The notes beneath the pieces were generated by a model. The model worked only from the letters and a program-made list of their open reading frames with translations. It did no database searches and had not been told where the DNA came from. Below, one piece after another: positions 1-7,525 of a stretch of DNA of 55,319 nucleotides (position 1 is the stretch's first letter; each line of letters begins with the position of its first letter). The position numbers and the translations under genes were made by a program. The stretch is from an uncultured virus (IMG/VR IMGVR_UViG_3300044956_000873) (taxonomy: Duplodnaviria; Heunggongvirae; Uroviricota; Caudoviricetes). The DNA lies in IMG/VR virus record IMGVR_UViG_3300044956_000873, one strand, 5' to 3'.

Positions 1-2
1 CT

Positions 3-539
3 AATTTAGCAACTAAAGCATTTCAAGCAGTTGCAGCTTTAACAGTTGCAGCTTACAAAATAGCTAAAACAGCTTTTAAAGGAATTGCTAATTTTGCAGC
101 AGAATGTATATACGGAGCAGCTAAAGCAGCTAAAATGATAGCAATTAAAATAGGAAACGACATTTCAGATTTTTATAATGCTTCGGTATCTTCATTTAAA
201 AAAAATAAGGATGCTATTGTAAAAACAACAAAAGATGGATTTGACGCAGTAGCAAACACAATTAAAGCTGGAGTTCAAAAAACTGAAAAAGTTGCTAACA
301 AGATAAAAACTGCGGCTGGTAATGCTCTTAAGACAGCTCAGAACAAAATTGTTAACACAGGAAAAGAAATACTTTCAATTGGATCCGCTATATGGGGGGG
401 TATTTGGGATCATGAGATTTACCAAGGAACATCCGAAGATATATTCGAATCGTATATTATTGTTGAGGGACAAAAATATTATGTACCAGTTGAATCATAC
501 GATGATTACGATTTAGAAGTTTTTGGATCGCAATATTAA
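3..539 (+). CDS. hypothetical Ala/Lys-rich protein, 5'-truncated by window
   Basis: Frame is open from base 3 (NLATKAFQAVAA...) through the listed 135..539 ORF; amphipathic low-complexity sequence. Confidence 0.6.
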   Translation, partial: NLATKAFQAVAALTVAAYKIAKTAFKGIANFAAECIYGAAKAAKMIAIKIGNDISDFYNASVSSFKKNKDAIVKTTKDGFDAVANTIKAGVQKTEKVANKIKTAAGNALKTAQNKIVNTGKEILSIGSAIWGGIWDHEIYQGTSEDIFESYIIVEGQKYYVPVESYDDYDLEVFGSQY

Positions 540-1053
540 GATGTCCTAGGGAAAAAATCCCCAAGAATATACCTATTAAATGACCCCAGTGTGATACTCC
601 ATCGGGGTCATTTAGTGTAACAAGCTCTCCTAAACCTATTATAGCTAAAATTGGTATAAATATCTTTCTATAATCTAATAGAAATCTAGTAAGCATAAGA
701 TAAACCAGTCCTGATATACCAATAGATACTGATATTCCTAATGCACACGTAAGTAAAAAAGTAATACACTGGATTATTATAGTTATCAAAACTATTTGTT
801 TTAAATCATATTTATTTCCTTTATATAGAAGAAAAAGAAATATAGCAATAATATTAAAAACAAAATGTAATAGAGATTGGTGTATAAATCCACTAATAAA
901 AGGCATAGATATAGCAAGATCTGCATTTCCTCCTAGGATTAGCATAGTAATTAATCCCACCGGATAAGCGAGTACGCATACGCCTATAATTTTTAATGTC
1001 TCTATCGCGGATCTTCTTAAATTATCTTTCATAATATTTGTTTTGTTATGCAA
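457..1053 (-). CDS. rhomboid-family intramembrane serine protease
   Basis: Multiple TM segments, FIHxxxxHxxFN, catalytic GISG and SHWGHLIG motifs; true start may be the ATG at 1032. Confidence 0.8.
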   Translation of the reverse strand: MHNKTNIMKDNLRRSAIETLKIIGVCVLAYPVGLITMLILGGNADLAISMPFISGFIHQSLLHFVFNIIAIFLFLLYKGNKYDLKQIVLITIIIQCITFLLTCALGISVSIGISGLVYLMLTRFLLDYRKIFIPILAIIGLGELVTLNDPDGVSHWGHLIGIFLGIFSLGHLNIAIQKLLNRNHRMIQLVHNIFVPQQ

Positions 1054-1089
1054 TTATAGAAAAAAGTGAAAAATACAAAAAAAGATTAC

Positions 1090-1127
1090 GAATCATTTTT
1101 TGTATCAATAAAAATAGCCTATATTTG
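1090..1127 (+). promoter_or_regulatory. Bacteroidota-type (early) promoter of tRNA operon 1
   Basis: TATATTTG (TAnnTTTG -7 box) at 1120-1127, GAATCATTTTTT at 1090-1101. Confidence 0.7.
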
Positions 1128-1163
1128 TGAAACAAAACAAAAGGAACAATATATAACACTTAA

Positions 1164-1238
1164 ATAAACAAATTAATTAACATAATACCCTCTATATTAA
1201 GACCGTCGATAAGACGATCCCCAAAGGTCCTATGTTAG
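1164..1238 (+). promoter_or_regulatory. putative attenuator leader ORF 1 (INKLINIIPSILRPSIRRSPKVLC, ATA start)
   Basis: 24-codon frame rich in ATA, TCN and AGA; its 3' end overlaps the antiterminator arm 1223-1241; start is ATA rather than ATG. Confidence 0.5.
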
Positions 1239-1259
1239 TTTTAACTATAACTATAAACT

Positions 1260-1294
1260 AAAAACCGGGGCCTTTAAAAAGTCCCGGTTTTTTT
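1260..1294 (+). terminator. intrinsic terminator (attenuator) upstream of tRNA cluster 1
   Basis: AAAAACCGGGGC...GTCCCGGTTTTTTT hairpin with a 7-T tract. Confidence 0.85.
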
Positions 1295-1295
1295 A

Positions 1296-1307
1296 TGTTC
1301 TTTGAAA
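1296..1307 (+). promoter_or_regulatory. boxA-like antitermination element
   Basis: TGTTCTTTGAAA, resembling rrn boxA; same position as in operon 2. Confidence 0.55.
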
Positions 1308-1329
1308 TATTGGTTAAATAAAATTATAA

Positions 1330-1417
1330 GGAGGATTAAACCATAATTGGTACTGGCGCAGTCTTGAAAACTATTCATCGTGCAAACGATGTGTAGATTC
1401 GAGTCCTACATCCTCCG
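1330..1417 (+). tRNA. tRNA-Ser(UGA), slightly degenerate
   Basis: GGAGGAT/ATCCTCC acceptor, CT-TGA-AA loop, long variable arm, TTCGAGT T-loop; stem mismatches. Confidence 0.8.
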
Positions 1418-1422
1418 CTCAT

Positions 1423-1494
1423 GGGTCCATAGTTAAAGGGATATAACCCTAGCCTTCTAAGCTTGTATTCCTGGTTCGAGTCCAGGTGGACCTA
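1423..1494 (+). tRNA. tRNA-Arg(UCU)
   Basis: GGGTCCA/TGGACCT acceptor, CT-TCT-AA loop, CCTGG-TTCGAGT-CCAGG T arm. Confidence 0.9.
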
Positions 1495-1541
1495 CATACC
1501 GCCCTCTACCTAGCGCTGGGTATGGATCGAAGATAAACCAT

Positions 1542-1769
1542 ATGGATCACGTCCCTAATGGTATGAAGGGTAAAAGACATTCTAAAGAATCTAAAGAAAA
1601 AATGGCTTTAAATAACACTAATAAATTAAGTCATTCTGAAATAATCAATAGGATAAATGATATTAAAAATGAGAATAATAAATGGGGCTATATAATTAGA
1701 CTATCAAAAAAATGCAAGGTCAGTCACACCCAAGTTAAAAGATTCATAAAAAAATATTTAGAGACGTAG
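1542..1769 (+). pseudogene. NUMOD3-containing homing endonuclease remnant
   Basis: GMKGKRHSKESKEKM NUMOD3 motif and C-terminal HTH-like segment, no nuclease domain; sits between tRNAs. Confidence 0.6.
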
Positions 1770-1833
1770 CTCAATTGGTTAGAGCACATGCCTTATACGC
1801 ATGCGGTCATGGGTTCGACTCCCATCGTCTCTA
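1760..1833 (+). tRNA. tRNA-Ile(UAU)
   Basis: Perfect stems AGAGACG/CGTCTCT, GCTC/GAGC, CATGC/GCATG, ATGGG/CCCAT; loop CT-TAT-AC. Confidence 0.92.
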
Positions 1834-1837
1834 CTTA

Positions 1838-1910
1838 GGTCCCTTAGCTTAGTCGGTTAGGACGTTAGGTTTTCATCCTAGAAAGAGGGGTTCGATTCCC
1901 CCAGAGACTA
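1838..1910 (+). tRNA. tRNA-Glu(UUC), degenerate
   Basis: TT-TTC-AT anticodon loop, GGGG-TTCGATT-CCCC T arm; acceptor and D-stem mismatches. Confidence 0.7.
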
Positions 1911-1999
1911 CTACAACTGGTACCCTTGAGAAACTCGTATTTAAAGATAAGCAGTGTGGTATAAAAGATAAAATCATTAATTTTTTGAAATAAGGGAGT

Positions 2000-2037
2000 G
2001 AATCATTTTTTATATTCTTTGGCAATTTCTATCTTTG
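2000..2037 (+). promoter_or_regulatory. early promoter
   Basis: GAATCATTTTTT at 2000 and TATCTTTG at 2030. Confidence 0.65.
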
Positions 2038-2057
2038 TAAAACAAAAATTAATTAAA

Positions 2058-2549
2058 ATGTTAGATAAATCAGAAGATTTTTACGTGTCGCTGTACAACG
2101 AATGTGAGGAAACCTCTATGATGTTTGGTTCAATCCCTGTGTTCTTTACCACTAAAAAATCAAGCATAGTATTTTATTCGTTTCTAATACTTTTTTCTTC
2201 TACATTAGAATACTTCTTGGGAACTTATTTTTTAGCCCCTATTTTTTCATTTATTCTTATTGCCGAACATCGGAGAATAATATTAACTAGGGAAACAGTA
2301 CTAGAAATGTGTATGATAGATGAGATACATTACAATTGGGAGGCTAAAGAAAATTCGGATCTTTTAGATAGGACTGGAATGAACTTTGAATTCTCCGATT
2401 CTGATCGATGTAGATATTTTTATGAGAGAGTAAAATATGTTGATTGTAATAATCCTTTTGTATACTTAAAGCGCCACTATAAATTTTTATTATTCATAGC
2501 AGCGCTCCATGTAATCTTCTATATTGGATTAGTATACTCCGTAGTCTGA
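2058..2549 (+). CDS. hypothetical membrane protein
   Basis: Three hydrophobic segments; start moved to ATG 2058 because the longer ORF overlaps the promoter. Confidence 0.6.
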   Translation: MLDKSEDFYVSLYNECEETSMMFGSIPVFFTTKKSSIVFYSFLILFSSTLEYFLGTYFLAPIFSFILIAEHRRIILTRETVLEMCMIDEIHYNWEAKENSDLLDRTGMNFEFSDSDRCRYFYERVKYVDCNNPFVYLKRHYKFLLFIAALHVIFYIGLVYSVV

Positions 2550-3440
2550 TTTTTTATAAAGATCACACCAGTGAAATTTATTTAGCATTTTTTGATCAAT
2601 CAGATAATTTTTATAGCAGTTAAGTAGTTGATCCGCTGGTAATCTTTTAGTTTCCCCCATTTTTTTTACCACTATATTTTGGATTTTACATACATCCTTC
2701 TTAAAGAAAGGCTCGTTGAAAAAATCTTTAAAAATTGAATACATAGATTTTCCTATTACTAGGGAATCAGCTTTTGAAATACCAGTTTCTTTTAGTCTTG
2801 ATCTTTGCATAGTAAACTCATCAGCATTTTGTATTGCCTCTGCAGCTATATTCTGTACTACCTCTACTGATTGATTGCTTAAATAATTAAAGGCATCTAT
2901 TATTTTTTTATAAACAACTTCATCGTATCTTCCACCGAATTCCCCATCCATTAACAATCTAAATTTGTTAACTGTTCTAGTTGTGGTGCCTAAAGATTCT
3001 AGTCCAATAGCATCAGAAAGAGCGCTAGGTCTTATAAAAAGCCTACCTGTACTGTAGTCTTCACTGCAGAAATTTTCTATTCCTCGTATTCTTGTAACAT
3101 AAACGTCCTCCCTAATCAATTCTTCTCTCCTTCTCCTACCCCTTAATCTCTCGGGATCACCAAATTCGTGTTGTCCTAGTGCTTTTAAATATAAAGCGGC
3201 AAGTTGAGACTTAGATATTACTTGTAGATCTCTTTCTAAAGCGGTCATTTCTCCTGGACTTAATGTCTCATCATCTAGCCAATCTAAGGTTTCTTCCTCC
3301 TCGTTTCCGTACTCATCCGCCTCATTTATAGAGTATAATCTAGAAATAAGAGATTGATTTTTATTACACCAATTCTCGTAAACCTTTTGTATTTCCTGTT
3401 CCTCGGTAGAAAAACTTTCAAATAGCTTAATTCTTTGCAT
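2529..3440 (-). CDS. hypothetical protein, probable head-internal protein
   Basis: N-terminus MQRIKLFESF plus SINE motif; GATATATA late motif 15 nt upstream. Confidence 0.6.
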   Translation of the reverse strand: MQRIKLFESFSTEEQEIQKVYENWCNKNQSLISRLYSINEADEYGNEEEETLDWLDDETLSPGEMTALERDLQVISKSQLAALYLKALGQHEFGDPERLRGRRRREELIREDVYVTRIRGIENFCSEDYSTGRLFIRPSALSDAIGLESLGTTTRTVNKFRLLMDGEFGGRYDEVVYKKIIDAFNYLSNQSVEVVQNIAAEAIQNADEFTMQRSRLKETGISKADSLVIGKSMYSIFKDFFNEPFFKKDVCKIQNIVVKKMGETKRLPADQLLNCYKNYLIDQKMLNKFHWCDLYKKSDYGVY

Positions 3441-3495
3441 TTCTTGTCTTTTATCTATATATCCCAACTAGGATTGTGTTTTTTTAATAAAATAA

Positions 3496-3508
3496 GGGGG
3501 GGGGGGGG
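3496..3508. repeat. G13 homopolymer
   Basis: 13 consecutive G in an AT-rich divergent intergenic region. Confidence 0.9.
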
Positions 3509-3538
3509 AAAATCGTTAATTTTTCAACTAAACCTTAA

Positions 3539-3576
3539 AGATCTTTTTTTAGGGCCGTTATATTTCCCTACTTTTG
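3539..3576 (+). promoter_or_regulatory. early promoter
   Basis: AGATCTTTTTTT at 3539 and TACTTTTG at 3569. Confidence 0.55.
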
Positions 3577-3587
3577 TGATATAGTGT

Positions 3588-4013
3588 ATGTATAAGTTTA
3601 ACATTAAAAATTTTATTATGGGGAAACAAGTTTTAAAAAGATTTACGATGGATGTAGATCACACTAACCCAGATGCTAAGACAATATTTACATCTGTCGG
3701 AACTGGTAAAACAGAAAAAGAAGCAGTAGTTTTTGCTTTATCAATGTTTTATAAAGTTATGGATGGAGATGAAGAGGGAAGTCCGAGTACACAAAATTAT
3801 GAAGATGCTTTGGAGATAGTTAGCGAGAAATTGGAAGAGGAAGGAATTGATGAAATAGTAAGATTATTAAGGGAAGGGAAAATTGAAAAAAATTCCGAAA
3901 TCTTTTATAACTCCTACGAATCAACAAATGTAGATTATAAATTCAGTGAAATATCTGAAGTGTCTGAGTGTGGATATATTGGCAGAATGGAAATAATCGA
4001 GCCAGAATATTAA
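3588..4013 (+). CDS. hypothetical acidic protein
   Basis: 141-aa ORF downstream of an early promoter; alternative start at 3618. Confidence 0.65.
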   Translation: MYKFNIKNFIMGKQVLKRFTMDVDHTNPDAKTIFTSVGTGKTEKEAVVFALSMFYKVMDGDEEGSPSTQNYEDALEIVSEKLEEEGIDEIVRLLREGKIEKNSEIFYNSYESTNVDYKFSEISEVSECGYIGRMEIIEPEY

Positions 4014-4025
4014 TAAAAATATCAA

Positions 4026-4062
4026 GAATCATTTTTTATTCAAAATAATTGTTTTAAATTTG
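4026..4062 (+). promoter_or_regulatory. early promoter of tRNA operon 2
   Basis: GAATCATTTTTT at 4026, TAAATTTG at 4055; followed by TGAAACAA as in operon 1. Confidence 0.7.
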
Positions 4063-4097
4063 TGAAACAATATCAGAATAAAGATATTTAAGAAAGA

Positions 4098-4205
4098 ATG
4101 AAAAACTGTAGTAAACATAACATCACCCGCATGAAAAGTCAGATTAATGGCTGTTATCAAACGGTGGCGTTTTGGGCTAAGGGGAAAAAACCCGATCGAA
4201 GCTAG
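4098..4205 (+). CDS. putative attenuator leader peptide 2 (MKNCSKHNITRMKSQINGCYQTVAFWAKGKKPDRS)
   Basis: ATG-started 35-aa ORF between promoter and terminator; last codons form the antiterminator arm. Confidence 0.65.
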   Translation: MKNCSKHNITRMKSQINGCYQTVAFWAKGKKPDRS

Positions 4206-4234
4206 ATACAGGAGATCATAAATAGATATTTTGG

Positions 4235-4265
4235 AAAAGGCTTCGATTATTTTGAAGCCTTTTTT
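4235..4265 (+). terminator. intrinsic terminator (attenuator) upstream of tRNA cluster 2
   Basis: AAAAGGCTTCG/TGAAGCCTTTT hairpin plus T tract. Confidence 0.85.
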
Positions 4266-4268
4266 ATT

Positions 4269-4280
4269 TGTTCTTTAACA
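4269..4280 (+). promoter_or_regulatory. boxA-like antitermination element
   Basis: TGTTCTTTAACA, one mismatch to E. coli rrn boxA TGCTCTTTAACA. Confidence 0.6.
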
Positions 4281-4288
4281 TACTTGAC

Positions 4289-4425
4289 AAAGGTTGATTG
4301 GGGAAGGATGATTCCAATAGCACGAGAGTGTATATCGGCTGGAATCATCGGAGTTGGAAGATATACACCTAAGTAAAGCCAATCGTAAAAGGGGATGTCC
4401 ACGCAACCATGTTCCTCTTTCCTTT
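4289..4425 (+). ncRNA. unidentified structured RNA with pseudoknot
   Basis: Five helices, including interleaved perfect 10-bp and 9-bp stems; first element after boxA, immediately before tRNA-Trp. Confidence 0.65.
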
Positions 4426-4429
4426 ACAC

Positions 4430-4503
4430 ACATCGGTAGCTTAATTGAATAGAGCACTGGTCTCCAAAACCAGGGGTTGTGGGTTCTAGTCCCACCCTTT
4501 GTG
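4430..4503 (+). tRNA. tRNA-Trp(CCA), degenerate
   Basis: CTGGT-CTCCAAA-ACCAG anticodon arm, GTGGG/CCCAC T stem; two acceptor mismatches, D-loop GG lost. Confidence 0.7.
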
Positions 4504-4508
4504 CAGCT

Positions 4509-4581
4509 GGCCCTGTAGTTCAATGGATTAGAATTGGTGACTACGGATCATCAGATACTCGTTCAAATCGAGTCGCGGCTT
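4509..4581 (+). tRNA. tRNA-Arg(ACG)
   Basis: CT-ACG-GA loop, ACTCG-TTCAAAT-CGAGT T arm; one acceptor mismatch. Confidence 0.75.
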
Positions 4582-4590
4582 CTAAAATAA

Positions 4591-4661
4591 GGTCGCGTGG
4601 CCGAGTGGTTAGGCGGCGGTCTGCAAAACCGATTACACTGGTTCGAATTTAGTCGTGACCC
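4591..4661 (+). tRNA. tRNA-Cys(GCA)
   Basis: GGTCGCG/CGTGACC acceptor, CT-GCA-AA loop, TTCGAAT T-loop. Confidence 0.85.
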
Positions 4662-4807
4662 CAAAAAATTAAAAAATAAAGCCCATTGATAAAAGAGTAA
4701 TAGTAAAAGGAACTTTAGCATCAAGTAAAGAAAATTTTAGAAGAGAGGGGTATAGTTTTACAATTAGTAAAGCAATATTTAAAAAAATTAAAAAAATACT
4801 CAAAAAA

Positions 4808-4893
4808 GGAAAGTAACCCCAGACGGTGACGGGGCTCGCCTGCTAAGCGAATCGTACCTTAATTGGTATCTGGTTCGATCCCAGTTCTTTCCG
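4808..4893 (+). tRNA. tRNA-Ser(GCU)
   Basis: GGAAAG/CTTTCC acceptor, CT-GCT-AA loop, long variable arm, CTGG-TTCGATC-CCAG. Confidence 0.75.
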
Positions 4894-4943
4894 CAACATT
4901 GACATATAGATAAGCATTGATTCGATACGTCGAAGGCTCATAT

Positions 4944-5015
4944 TTTCCACTCATCTAATTGGCAGGACATGTGGTTTTGGTCCACAGAATCGAGGTTCGA
5001 ATCTTTGGGGAAAAA
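4944..5015 (+). tRNA. tRNA-Gln(UUG), degenerate
   Basis: TGTGG-TTTTGGT-CCACA anticodon arm, TTCGAAT T-loop; acceptor mismatches. Confidence 0.7.
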
Positions 5016-5054
5016 CAAAGATAAATAAGAAGACCAGTATGTAAAAATGTAGTT

Positions 5055-5543
5055 ATGAAAGTGCTAGTATTAAATAATGACTTTACGCCAGTAAGCGTTA
5101 CCGACTTTGCTCGGGGATTTAAACTTGTATACAAAGGTAAAGCTGAAATACTAGAGCATGATGAAGAAAATCCTATAGTTACTGACCAAAAAATTTACAA
5201 AAGACCTTCAGTTATAAGGCTTCTACAGTACGTTGTTTTGCCTTTTAAGAAGCTAAAACCCACGAGGGAGAACATATTTAAGAGAGACGAATTAAAGTGC
5301 TTATACTGCGATTCTACGAAGCAACTCACCATAGATCACGTCAGACCTAAATCTAGAGGAGGTATAAACACTTGGGAAAATCTTGCTACTTGTTGTTCAA
5401 AATGCAACAGTAAAAAGGGAGACAGAACCCCAGAGGAAGCTGGAATGAAAATGAGACACAAACCATTTAAGCCGGGATATGGGTATTTTATCAAGAATTT
5501 TTCAAAGGGGATAGATGTCTGGACAGCATATTTACCAGAATAG
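5055..5543 (+). CDS. HNH endonuclease (McrA-like)
   Basis: VLVLN N-terminus, RENIFKRD, CxxC, TIDHVRPKSRGG, WENLATCCSKCNSKKG. Confidence 0.9.
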   Translation: MKVLVLNNDFTPVSVTDFARGFKLVYKGKAEILEHDEENPIVTDQKIYKRPSVIRLLQYVVLPFKKLKPTRENIFKRDELKCLYCDSTKQLTIDHVRPKSRGGINTWENLATCCSKCNSKKGDRTPEEAGMKMRHKPFKPGYGYFIKNFSKGIDVWTAYLPE

Positions 5544-5613
5544 TTAAAAAATCCTAGAATTTATTGGATTTTTTATGTGTGATCCCTCTATAATGTAAGT
5601 AAAAAATAAAATT

Positions 5614-6678
5614 ATGTTATTTGATTTTGACGATATACTCATAGAACCAGAAATGCACACAGGAATACTATCCAGAAAAAAAGTGGATGTTTTTGACGAA
5701 AAGCAAATGCTTCCCCTTTTTACTGCTCCGATGGACACTGTTATTAGCATGGAAAACTATTTAGTTTTTAATTCCAACAAAATTTATAGTATTATACCAA
5801 GAAAAACTGAATACACTCTCATAGACGTTTCAATAGATCCAAAAGTTTGGTTTTCTTATGGATTGGACGACTTTAAAAAAATATTCATAAACAACAGAGC
5901 TAATATAGGATTAGGTGAAAAAGCTTATGCCCTAATTGATATAGCTAACGGTCACATGAATATAGTAAAAGAATTGTTAGAACAGTCTAAAGGGATTTAT
6001 GGGAGAAGCCTAGTTATAATGGTAGGTAATTGTGCAAATCCTTATACGTTTTTATCATTAGCTAATGCTGGAGCTGATTATGTTAGAATGGGGATTGGTA
6101 ACGGAGCTGGGTGTTTAACGACAGTACAGACTGGGGTAGGATATCCAATGGCATCACTTATCCATGAAACTGCTAAGATACAACAAGAAAGAAACCTTTC
6201 AACTAAAATAGTAGCAGACGGAGGATTCAAGAAATATGCTGATGTTATAAAAGCTTTAGCGCTAGGAGCTGACTATGTAATGCTTGGAAGTATATTTAAT
6301 AAGGCTTTAGAAAGCTGTGGAGAAACATACGAGGAGAATAAGGATCATGGATCTTGGAAAGAACCGGGGGATAAGGTAGATCAATATTCAATCTATGTTC
6401 TTTTACAGTTCGAAGCGGGAAAGAAATTTTTTAAAAAGTTTAGAGGAATGTCAACTAAGGATGTGCAAAAAAGTCTAGGTAAAACCGAATTAAAAACATC
6501 TGAAGGGATTTATAAAATGCAGCAAGTTGAATACACATTGAGTAGTTGGTGTGAAAATTTTCAAGATTATCTAAAATCTGCAATGAGTTATACGGATTGT
6601 CTTACTATAGGAGAATTTATTGGCAAAGTGCGGTTCAATAAAATATCAAAAAATTCGTTTGATAGATTTCATAAATAG
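5614..6678 (+). CDS. guaC: GMP reductase / IMP dehydrogenase family protein
   Basis: FDDILIEP, TAPMDTV, IDIANGH, GIGNGAGCLT, ADGG, VMLGS, FRGMST, TSEG; no CBS domains. Confidence 0.8.
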   Translation: MLFDFDDILIEPEMHTGILSRKKVDVFDEKQMLPLFTAPMDTVISMENYLVFNSNKIYSIIPRKTEYTLIDVSIDPKVWFSYGLDDFKKIFINNRANIGLGEKAYALIDIANGHMNIVKELLEQSKGIYGRSLVIMVGNCANPYTFLSLANAGADYVRMGIGNGAGCLTTVQTGVGYPMASLIHETAKIQQERNLSTKIVADGGFKKYADVIKALALGADYVMLGSIFNKALESCGETYEENKDHGSWKEPGDKVDQYSIYVLLQFEAGKKFFKKFRGMSTKDVQKSLGKTELKTSEGIYKMQQVEYTLSSWCENFQDYLKSAMSYTDCLTIGEFIGKVRFNKISKNSFDRFHK

Positions 6679-6705
6679 GAAACCTTTAAAAAAGCACCAT
6701 ATAAT
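6679..6705 (+). promoter_or_regulatory. putative middle promoter GAAACYTT...TATAAT
   Basis: Motif recurs at 8643, 10472, 11174, 33670, 34906 and 45837 with 21-23 nt spacing. Confidence 0.55.
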
Positions 6706-6721
6706 AAATAAAATAGCATAA

Positions 6722-7525
6722 ATGAAAAAATTTGGGAGATTCAATGATGTCATTAGATGGACCGCTGAACAAATGTATGATTATTCTTATACTGTCCATA
6801 CTGAAAAATGGCAAGGAAAAGAGATTAAACACGATCCTAAATATGCTATGATCGAGACGTTGAACTTATCCTTTTCGTGTCAGATGTCTCCAGATATCAA
6901 AGTTATTGGAGAGCAGATAAAACCAAATTTTGCTTGGGCAGATGAACATTTCGAGGAAAGAGTTAGTAGATCCCCTCTTAATCCTCCGCCCTCACACGTT
7001 CGCTGGCCTTATGCACAGAAAAATAATACTGAATTCGGGGGGTATGAAAAATTCTCACATACATATCCAGAAAGAATATGGGGAAAATATGGTGAAGAGG
7101 ATTCACCAACTAGAAAATCTGGGGTAACATTAAAAGGAATAAGATACCATTATGGGGATTTTGCAGATGTTATTAATCTTATGGTTAGAGAACCTTTTAC
7201 TAGGCAAGCATTTCTTCCGATATGGTATCCGGAAGACACAGGCTCCGTCCACGGAGAAAGAGTTCCTTGTACAATAGGGTATCACTTTATAAGAAGAGAT
7301 GATTGGGTTCATGTAGTTTATTATATTAGATCCTGTGATTTCTTTAGACACTTTAGAGATGATATCTATTTATGTGCTAAGAAGGTGTTTTGGCTTATTG
7401 AGGAGTGTAAGAAAAAAGATCAAGAAAACTGGAAAGATGTTAAACCAGGAATGTTAACAATGCACATAACATCTTTACACGCATGGGCTTCAGAAAAACC
7501 TATGCTTAAGAATTTGATTCGATGA
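6722..7525 (+). CDS. thymidylate synthase-family enzyme, probable dCMP hydroxymethylase/methylase type
   Basis: TRQA, VPCT catalytic Cys, RSCDFFRHFRDD, HITSLH. Confidence 0.75.
   Translation: MKKFGRFNDVIRWTAEQMYDYSYTVHTEKWQGKEIKHDPKYAMIETLNLSFSCQMSPDIKVIGEQIKPNFAWADEHFEERVSRSPLNPPPSHVRWPYAQKNNTEFGGYEKFSHTYPERIWGKYGEEDSPTRKSGVTLKGIRYHYGDFADVINLMVREPFTRQAFLPIWYPEDTGSVHGERVPCTIGYHFIRRDDWVHVVYYIRSCDFFRHFRDDIYLCAKKVFWLIEECKKKDQENWKDVKPGMLTMHITSLHAWASEKPMLKNLIR

Follow-up and report, generated by a model that had tools for sequence, protein, structure and literature searches.

How the transfer RNA (tRNA) genes of phages are regulated is little understood, and they are usually treated as constitutive supplements to codon usage. 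What, then, is to be made of a phage tRNA operon that stands behind a promoter, a short reading frame and an intrinsic terminator? The question is raised by a 55,319-nucleotide (nt) stretch of DNA, the whole of which is referred to here as the window, from an uncultured Caudoviricetes virus (IMG/VR record IMGVR_UViG_3300044956_000873; AT-rich, with a GC content of about 33%). In this stretch the three elements, together called leader 1, precede tRNA operon 1, an arrangement that an initial annotation, made from the letters alone, had interpreted as an attenuator. That interpretation is supported by the sequence comparisons and predicted folds described below, all of them computational: leader 1 is likely a ribosome-mediated attenuator which raises transcription of the tRNA genes when the operon's own codons are decoded slowly. 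The observations that carry this reading are features of the sequence, their conservation, a match between codons and anticodons, and alternative folds of the leader.

The proposed mechanism begins with a Bacteroidota-type promoter, from which an RNA of about 160 nt bearing a frame of 19 or 24 codons would be started. Codons 7-17 of this frame (ATA, TTA, TCN, CCN, AGA) would be read by tRNA-Ile(UAU), tRNA-Leu(UAA), tRNA-Ser(UGA), tRNA-Pro(UGG) and tRNA-Arg(UCU). Provided that the frame is translated and that translation is coupled to transcription, slow decoding would cause the ribosome to stall on region 1, region 2 would pair with region 3, the terminator would not form, and RNA polymerase would enter the tRNA genes. 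With fast decoding, the ribosome at the stop codon would cover region 2, the 3:4 terminator would form and transcription would end at 1288-1294; with no ribosome, helices 1:2 and 3:4 would both form, again leading to termination. The outcome would be a negative feedback holding the supply of these exact tRNAs at the level that translation needs. The clade would have three such sensors with non-overlapping codon sets, one per tRNA operon. For the presumed host group, a transcriptome study of Flavobacterium gives clues for leader-peptide attenuation at amino-acid operons and describes translation without use of Shine-Dalgarno sequences (PMC9723704).

Relatives used for comparison

Against 50,697 phage records, a blastn search with positions 1040-5040 found no relative and gave tRNA-sized matches only, and the open reading frame (ORF) at 2529-3467, used as a query for related loci, found none either. 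An IMPDH-like protein encoded 4 kb downstream led instead to 16 related viral loci with 80-87% identity, and further loci for comparison (L numbers below) were added by pattern scans. For homologues of leader 1 the bait was a 21-nt core pattern with 19 specified bases. The resulting counts are 9 viral instances and 13 genuine loci out of 80 fetched from metagenomes; the other 67 were dropped as chance matches (mean GC 0.62 vs 0.28 in the 13 genuine loci). L023, a chance match in a contig of 63% GC, was dropped from all counts, and L021, L024, L026 and L027, which are second copies of contigs already in the count, were left out. The viral and metagenome collections share their origin in part, so the two counts of homologues are not independent. 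In all, the comparison of leader 1 comprises 8 distinct frames, the window included.

A leader frame written in the codons of its operon

The 24-codon frame that the initial annotation had proposed, with four internal ATA, two AGA and three TCN codons, is present. Codons 1-12 read ATA AAC AAA TTA ATT AAC ATA ATA CCC TCT ATA TTA, and codons 13-24 read AGA CCG TCG ATA AGA CGA TCC CCA AAG GTC CTA TGT. The frame starts right after a TAA at 1161-1163, and ATG, GTG and TTG are all absent from it in frame. Codons 7-17 form a run of 11 codons drawn from the set TCN/AGR/CCN/ATA/TTR, and none of the six frames of the window has a longer one. Given the phage's own codon usage, in which the set makes up 0.213 of codons, the chance of a run of this length is about 5e-7 per 24-codon stretch, and a run of 11 was reached by 2 of 100,000 first-order Markov resamples of 1164-1238. 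Leader 1 thus contains a cluster of candidate regulatory codons related to the product of its operon.

This codon set is kept in the relatives. Throughout the 8 distinct frames, codons 7-17 are always taken from it, and all 11 variant codons among the homologues (codons 7-17 and codon 19 being considered) stay within it, for which the crude chance is 3e-5. As seven of these variants are swaps among Ile, Leu and Ser, what is preserved is neither the peptide nor the nucleotide sequence; judged from this alignment, it is codon identity that is conserved in leader 1. The homologous frames are either 19 or 24 codons long, a 1-nt indel shifting the stop codon. In the 24-codon form the stop (TAG, 1236-1238) lies within region 2 of the RNA, and in the 19-codon form a TAA overlaps the start of region 2.

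It had been noted as a caveat that the first codon of the window frame is ATA, possibly a mutated ATG. The orthologous leaders bear this out: ATG stands at the position equivalent to 1164 in 9 of 9 viral instances and 13 of 13 genuine metagenome homologues, and the 5' leader of the orthologues therefore does contain a short ORF that opens with a start codon. The window leader, ATA included, is identical in contigs from four lake-water runs, so the allele is real.

One codon of the frame calls for a separate remark. CGA is the rarest sense codon of those checked in the long ORFs of the phage (0.13%), and it is invariant both as codon 18 of leader 1 (1212-1217) and as codon 34 of leader 2 (4197-4199), the sister element described below. 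In leader 1 it alone interrupts the regulatory run, and it sits in a small invariant hairpin.

Predicted alternative structures of the leader RNA

The features of the leader and of the operon are collected in Table 1.

Table 1. Positions of leader and tRNA operon features in the window
Feature	Position	Strand	Description
Promoter	1090..1133	+	upstream element GAATCATTTTTT 1090-1101; TTTG 1099-1102; -7 box TATATTTG 1120-1127; extended motif to 1133
Leader frame	1164..1238	+	24 sense codons and TAG; first codon ATA where all relatives have ATG
Region 1	1177..1191	+	predicted (RNAalifold, RNAfold) to pair with region 2 when ribosome-free; helix 1:2 94.0% paired across 9 sequences
Regulatory run	1182..1214	+	codons 7-17: ATA ATA CCC TCT ATA TTA AGA CCG TCG ATA AGA
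Small hairpin	1201..1219	+	GA-CGUC / GACG-UC, inside the frame; 6 pairs, 100% paired, never varying
Region 2, antiterminator 5' strand	1222..1238	+	spans the last codons of the frame and its stop codon
Intrinsic terminator	1262..1294	+	stem 1262-1271/1281-1290, loop 1272-1280, T run 1288-1294
Region 3, antiterminator 3' strand	1263..1277	+	overlaps the terminator 5' arm; helix 95.2% paired
Conserved motif TGTTCTTTGAAAT	1296..1308	+	between terminator and first tRNA; annotated as boxA-like
Class-II tRNA-Ser(UGA)-like gene	1330..1416	+	Rfam tRNA-Sec 32.2 bits, below the 47-bit cut-off; uncalled by ARAGORN
tRNA-Arg(UCU)	1423..1495	+	ARAGORN, Rfam
75-amino-acid ORF	1542..1769	+	homing endonuclease C-terminal remnant, located where relatives have tRNA-Pro(UGG)
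tRNA-Ile(UAU)	1760..1834	+	ARAGORN, Rfam
tRNA-Glu(UUC)	1838..1911	+	ARAGORN; 3 nt behind tRNA-Ile; heads a separate operon in relatives
Leader 2, sister attenuator (putative)	4026..4282	+	ATG frame 4098-4205, terminator 4232-4266, motif TGTTCTTTAACAT
Class-II tRNA-Ser(GCU)-like gene	4807-4893		Rfam tRNA-Sec 33.6 bits, anticodon loop CUGCUAA; uncalled by ARAGORN

An attenuator of this kind would need helices that exclude one another, and both the single-sequence and the consensus folds contain them (1:2, 2:3 and 3:4). When the full leader is folded, 1177-1191 pairs with 1224-1238, the hairpin at 1201-1219 forms and so does the terminator (1262-1290). When the leader is truncated by removal of the terminator 3' arm, 1222-1236 pairs instead with 1263-1277 and occupies most of the terminator 5' arm. 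The opposition of antiterminator and terminator read from the letters in the initial annotation is therefore recovered, and both structures are conserved. The terminator stands directly upstream of the genes, 36 nt before the first tRNA-like one, and the stop codon lies inside region 2. The predicted energy of the terminator in the window is -14.5 kcal/mol; over the 9 sequences compared, the terminator ranges from -10.9 to -16.0 kcal/mol, the antiterminator from -13.3 to -18.9 and helix 1:2 from -14.3 to -19.3, the three being of similar strength in every sequence. The small invariant hairpin inside the frame is possibly a pause hairpin for RNA polymerase. By eye, the upper antiterminator helix looks different in two subfamilies; this gapped part of the alignment was left out of the covariation count given below.

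Behind the terminator, the element that had been called boxA-like holds up as a conserved motif, one base longer at its end than first given. Motifs of the TGTTCTTTGAAAT type are found behind all three leader types of the clade. The likeness to what we take to be the rrn boxA consensus is a resemblance only, and the label is unsupported: no motif of this type precedes 16S in one Pedobacter record (274 nt examined) or one Tamlana record (240 nt), the host of the phage not having been identified, and none of 16 motif-bearing Bacteroidota loci has an adjacent rRNA or tRNA.

The leader does not belong to a catalogued class of RNA. A cmscan of positions 1-7000 against Rfam (E up to 10) gave no T-box match and no match to any other cis-regulatory family already described. 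Below threshold, L20_leader (23.9 bits, 1193-1301), Phe_leader (24.2 bits, 4214-4267) and STnc240 were listed; they fall far short of their cut-offs and were judged to be chance matches driven by hairpins.

Two further leaders in the same clade

If the codons of leader 1 answer to the tRNAs of its operon, a second operon should be headed by other codons. Leader 2, farther along the window, has the same architecture as leader 1 and, as had been listed for it, contains no ATA, AGA or TCN. All 29 of its codons 2-30 fall within the boxes of the 16 tRNAs of its operon, a Ser(GCU)-like gene being counted, and only 23 of 300,000 random peptides covered all 15 non-Met tRNA species of that operon. Differences among its homologues number 1, 3 and 9 at codon positions 1, 2 and 3. 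The Ser(GCU)-like gene (4807-4893) would read the codons AGT, AGT and AGC of leader 2. This stretch is conserved in relatives between tRNA-Cys and tRNA-Ile(gat), and a Ser(gct) gene is called at the matching place in a diverged homologue of the operon. Right behind the leader-2 motif lies a 140-nt element (4287-4429) with 87-95% identity to DNA that separates tRNA-Lys from tRNA-Trp in L010, L013 and L016; its fold is no better than that of shuffled sequences (z -0.70).

A third leader, missing from the window, was found at L005:5740-5900 with homologues in L008, L010, L013, L014, L016, L018, L029, L037 and L039. It is unrelated in sequence and has the same layout: an ATG frame of 24-29 codons stands between a promoter and a terminator, and the motif is CGCTCTTTGAAAT or one of its variants. 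Leader 3 precedes a Glu-Asp-Met-Leu(tag) operon (one example being MKHFLNIAIDFQLHKEDDLLEDTIKCQRK), and its frame is rich in Glu, Asp and Leu(CTN) codons, with runs such as GAA GAT GAC CTT CTA GAG GAT.

This settles a puzzle about leader 1, which has no Glu codon even though a tRNA-Glu gene stands in the operon behind it. In the relatives, tRNA-Glu belongs to the separate operon with the Glu/Asp/Leu(CTN) leader, and leader 1 lacks a Glu codon because tRNA-Glu was ancestrally behind leader 3. Window positions 1906-1973 match the spacer behind tRNA-Glu in L010. By this comparison, leader 3 is lost from the lineage of the window and tRNA-Glu has joined behind tRNA-Ile. The three leaders of the clade thus have almost non-overlapping codon sets which track the boundaries of the operons, and on the sequences at hand leaders 2 and 3 are two independent replicates of the codon-anticodon rule.

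Erosion of operon 1 and the state of the window copy

The tRNA genes Ser(UGA), Arg(UCU), Ile(UAU) and Glu(UUC) occupy the places first assigned to them, the Ser gene being below threshold in Rfam. In an alignment the Ser(UGA)-like gene of the window differs from the tRNA-Ser of the relatives, and it shares about 82% identity with parts of Vibrio phages that carry no annotation. Leader 1 also contains Pro and Leu codons, for which the operon in the window offers no tRNA, and it had been suggested that such genes were lost. The relatives confirm it: behind leader 1 they carry Ser(tga)-Arg(tct)-Pro(tgg)-Ile(tat)-Met(cat)-Leu(taa), so that the Pro and Leu codons do have their tRNAs, Pro(UGG) and Leu(UAA), in the ancestral operon. 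The 75-amino-acid ORF that takes the place of tRNA-Pro matches phrog_16521 (E 3.2e-14, profile positions 101-166 of 178) and phrog_314, "homing endonuclease" (E 6e-4), and has no match in Pfam. Its region has only 35 nt in common with the spacer of the relatives, and the ORF overlaps the start of tRNA-Ile by 10 nt.

Overall, the window has 7 tRNA genes called by ARAGORN and two Ser-like genes, against 24-27 tRNA genes in three operons in the fullest relatives compared to window positions 1-5100 (L005, L006, L008, L014 and L016). Pro, Met, Leu(UAA) and most other tRNAs are absent from the phage, and L007 and L009 show an erosion similar to that of the window. Judged by these comparisons, leader 1 of the window and the tRNA losses give the impression of a decaying system. 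What the window retains is probably a leader-peptide attenuator with a mutated start codon, start-defective and impaired. With ATA in place of ATG and all helices intact, it would probably be poorly translated and mostly terminating, in keeping with the disappearance of most tRNA genes from this phage.

It is conceivable, if doubtful, that the window copy is still active, either because AUA or another non-canonical start suffices in the host's translation without Shine-Dalgarno sequences or because the change retunes the sensor. All three helices and the regulatory run are intact, the cognate Ser-like, Arg and Ile genes remain, and ATA, as the sole allele in the contigs of four lake-water runs, has not been rapidly purged. 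The conservation of ATG in all 22 homologue instances speaks for a defect, as does the ribosome-free fold, which predicts helix 1:2 together with the terminator; the absence of most tRNA genes, Pro, Met and Leu(UAA) among those lost, would fit relaxed selection.

Leaders ahead of tRNA clusters in other phages

Is the arrangement confined to this clade? A viral scan for a T run followed by the motif gave at least 119 loci, of which 80 were examined, and 80 loci were examined among the matches listed in an equivalent scan of cellular genomes. The motif served as the bait, so its presence in the scanned families is by construction. A tRNA gene on the same strand within 400 nt was found in 24 of the 80 viral loci examined, among the matches listed, and all 24 of these have an upstream ATG frame of 23-45 codons that ends 50-80 nt before the T run. 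Such a tRNA layout was found in none of the 80 cellular loci examined, among the matches listed. Examples are a frame with 10 Leu codons ahead of four tRNA-Leu genes, MKTLLDILNLFAAEHLWADDEKLCTVG ahead of Asp-Glu-Leu-Leu-Ala-Leu tRNAs, MIHIYKHSKHSSFSSKWFATIGVLILLCL ahead of Trp-His-Phe-Ser-Ser-Ser-Lys tRNAs and MKTIHIILIGGTDRTEATTPMEMV ahead of Glu-Ala-Met-Met-Gly-Asp-Asp-Arg-Thr-Met tRNAs.

The initial annotation had seen a codon split between two leaders that mirrored the anticodon split between their clusters. The same correspondence is found in the three leaders of the clade and was put on a statistical footing with 15 leader-cluster pairs. Under four settings (strict or lenient wobble, combined with a gap rule of 600 or 1000 nt for the operon, and with pooled leader codons as the background) the summed Z was 25.6-34.8, and 0 of 200,000 permutations reached the observed score. 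Nine of the 15 leaders ranked their own cluster first. In folds of truncated leaders, the 5' arm of the terminator pairs with upstream sequence in 12 of the 15 leader families, and in 7 of those 12 its antiterminator partner falls within the final 10 nt of the frame.

Otherwise unrelated leader peptides (L040-L119, L279-L289) share an N-terminus of the form M-K/R-N/T, then H or N with I after it, within the first nine residues (for example, MKNCSKHNI, MKNTNKHMN, MRTTGQHIN and MKNLNIIL). Common descent, initiation context or region-1 pairing could each account for this.

Weighing the attenuator against other explanations

Several points weigh against a ribosome-mediated attenuator. With regard to structure, the support from pairing (95.8% of cells paired for helix 1:2 with the terminator and 96.7% for the antiterminator in the 9 sequences, vs 24-56% in slid controls) is partly circular, as the structure was derived from the sequences themselves. 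Compensatory double changes in either alternative structure were found at 0 pairs in the 9 sequences, and the structural support thus consists of conservation and recurrence, not of covariation. When the stall codons are masked over the length of a ribosome, the terminator is still the minimum-energy fold at equilibrium; the model therefore depends on co-transcriptional kinetics, that is, on the order of synthesis, as in classical attenuators. Among the other families, 3 of 15 have no antiterminator in the minimum-energy fold of the truncated leader, and in several more, shuffled controls often did as well (8-9 of the 30 shuffles made per family in this test of antiterminator geometry). With regard to codons, the CGA that is invariant as codon 18 of leader 1 is read by no tRNA of its operon, and the window copy, with its ATA, has no canonical in-frame start from which a leader peptide could be made. 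Large clusters match weakly, with three leaders ranking their own cluster 6th or 7th of 15; some pairs in the permutation test share ancestry, and the ends of the operons were set by the gap rule.

The weak match of the large clusters is what would be expected if the leaders were general sensors of translation speed, reporting overall ribosome speed or charging, with the codon match as a by-product of phage codon preferences. Leader 2, which samples nearly every codon family of its 16-tRNA operon, could be read in the same way. We consider this unlikely. The three leaders of one clade have near-disjoint codon sets along operon boundaries, and small clusters (four Leu; Asp/Glu/Leu/Ala; Trp/His/Phe/Ser/Lys) have leaders that match them. 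Moreover, the background of the permutation test was the pooled codon usage of the leaders themselves, and still no permutation reached the observed score.

Another possibility is antitermination by a factor, in which a protein or a Nus-type complex would load at TGTTCTTTGAAAT or on the leader RNA, as in rRNA operons and lambdoid phages, and the frame would be incidental. Such a factor would account for a motif kept behind three unrelated leaders of the clade and resembling the boxA consensus, and a terminator right before untranslated genes would suit a timed read-through. Nevertheless, the motif lies 3' of the terminator and would be transcribed only after the decision on read-through had been made, it was not found within the 240-274 nt upstream of 16S in the two Bacteroidota records, and the conserved ATG, the stop inside region 2, the turnover of codons within the set and the codon-anticodon match would all be left unexplained. 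As a replacement for the attenuator, a factor is thus quite improbable; an antitermination factor could act in addition to it.

A stand-alone small RNA or micro-protein gene, with the tRNAs transcribed from elsewhere and the likeness to an attenuator coincidental, would have its own promoter and efficient-looking terminator, and trans-acting terminated leader RNAs occur in other bacteria, yet we regard it as very improbable, as only 12-40 nt with no TAnnTTTG box separate the T run from the first tRNA, the codon set is conserved and the peptide sequence is not, and the layout precedes tRNA clusters in 24 of 80 viral vs 0 of 80 cellular loci examined, among the matches listed.

Promoters and genomic setting

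The promoter proposed at 1090-1127 is present. Its upstream element GAATCATTTTTT occurs without change at three places in the window, 1090, 2000 and 4026, and the extended motif TAnnTTTGnnAAAC has exactly three mismatch-free copies, at 1120, 2030 and 4055. A two-box match, TTTG-N17-TATATTTG, spans 1099-1127, and the promoter of leader 1 is invariant across the relatives. According to the Flavobacterium study, TAnnTTTG is the sigma-A -7 box of flavobacteria, at positions -12 to -5 (PMC9723704), and the transcript is accordingly predicted to begin near 1132. Over the window, the two-box pattern is no more frequent than chance would have it (2 found vs 2.3 expected). We infer a Bacteroidota host from the three promoters only, and a thymidylate-synthase-like protein, whose matches are to phages with diverse hosts and do not exceed about 40% identity, allows no host call. 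The third promoter copy (2000-2043, upstream element and extended -7 motif) precedes a protein ORF at 2058-2549, for which no family was found, and not a tRNA leader.

With regard to the phage itself, the nearest IMG/VR record (G001; 49.6 kb, CheckV completeness 18%) is 100% identical to the window over 1040-5040, which makes it uninformative as a comparison, and contigs of up to 186.9 kb from lake-water runs contain the window sequence; the DNA thus comes from a large freshwater phage, as yet uncultured, of which the window is a fragment. Among the runs listed as containing the phage there is no RNA run. A gene for a rhomboid-family membrane protein (457-1053, minus strand; Pfam PF01694, E 1.3e-8) is divergent from the leader-1 promoter. 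A homopolymer of about 13 G lies at about 3494-3510, between the divergent ORFs 2529-3467 (minus strand) and 3588-4013 (plus strand). Among the loci retrieved, L203:604-1177, in a contig of a Flavobacteriaceae metagenome-assembled genome, has a full-length transfer-messenger RNA match (604-979) whose 3' end is overlapped by a group I intron match (965-1177).

Relation to known attenuators

Multivalent leader attenuators are familiar from enterobacteria, where the thr leader senses Thr and Ile and the ilvGMEDA leader senses Ile, Leu and Val. Like these, the phage element would have a short leader with several kinds of regulatory codons, three exclusive helices, a terminator directly before the genes and a stop codon at which a ribosome, on finishing, would block the antiterminator. 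Unlike them, it would regulate tRNA genes rather than biosynthetic enzymes, and its sensing would be at the level of the anticodon (ATA and not ATY, AGA and not CGN, TCN and not AGY, TTA and not CTN). It is, moreover, encoded by a phage with Bacteroidota-type promoters, in whose clade three sensors with partitioned codon sets occur in one genome.

Closer in function are leaders that control the translation apparatus. In E. coli, genes of this kind are under leader-peptide control at the pheST attenuator. In bacilli, a leader with His codons precedes hisS paralogues (PMC2965389). As in these cases, the decoding of given codons by the phage leaders would control a gene that feeds the same decoding step; the hisS and pheST elements control synthetases, one amino acid each, whereas the phage leaders would control tRNA, with up to 16 species per leader. 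The T-box riboswitch is also similar, in that an antiterminator/terminator choice in a leader RNA responds to the state of a specific tRNA, except that the phage sensor would use a translating ribosome and not direct binding of tRNA. T-boxes control synthetase, transporter and biosynthesis genes. Finally, the phage motif (1296-1308) is short, T-rich and conserved and, as in rrn operons, stands near the beginning of a set of untranslated RNA genes; unlike boxA in Nus antitermination, it comes after and not before the regulated terminator.

In the described leader-peptide attenuators known to us or found, the regulated genes are those of amino-acid biosynthesis enzymes or synthetases; here they are tRNA genes. 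No published case of leader-peptide attenuation of tRNA genes was found in open-access full texts and bioRxiv, the hisS leader being the closest. The machinery is classical, and what is new is the regulated product (tRNA), the resolution at the level of the anticodon and the partition into three sensors.

Implications for phage tRNA genes

The codon content of a leader can be put to use. It predicts which tRNAs form one transcription unit, and it exposes tRNA genes missed by gene finders, as with the AGY codons of leader 2, which pointed to the tRNA-Ser(GCU)-like gene. It also flags decaying systems, such as the ATA start mutant of the window, and the leaders could provide compact, codon-specific translation sensors for synthetic biology in Bacteroidota.

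If the proposed mechanism is correct, tRNA supply would be subject to demand-driven feedback, and the principle of trp, his and thr attenuation would be extended from the supply of amino acids to the tRNA pool. Going beyond this clade, large phages with Bacteroidota-type promoters may well run a codon-resolved tRNA homeostat, in which each operon is gated by a leader written in its own codons; the phage would thereby gauge translation in the infected cell separately for each codon family, and only the tRNAs that run short would be topped up. Ribosome-mediated attenuation would then be a general control of tRNA genes, one so far undescribed in print. Such sensors would also switch phage tRNAs on when host defences cleave or deplete the tRNAs of the host, and would thereby give the phage a built-in trigger for counter-defence.

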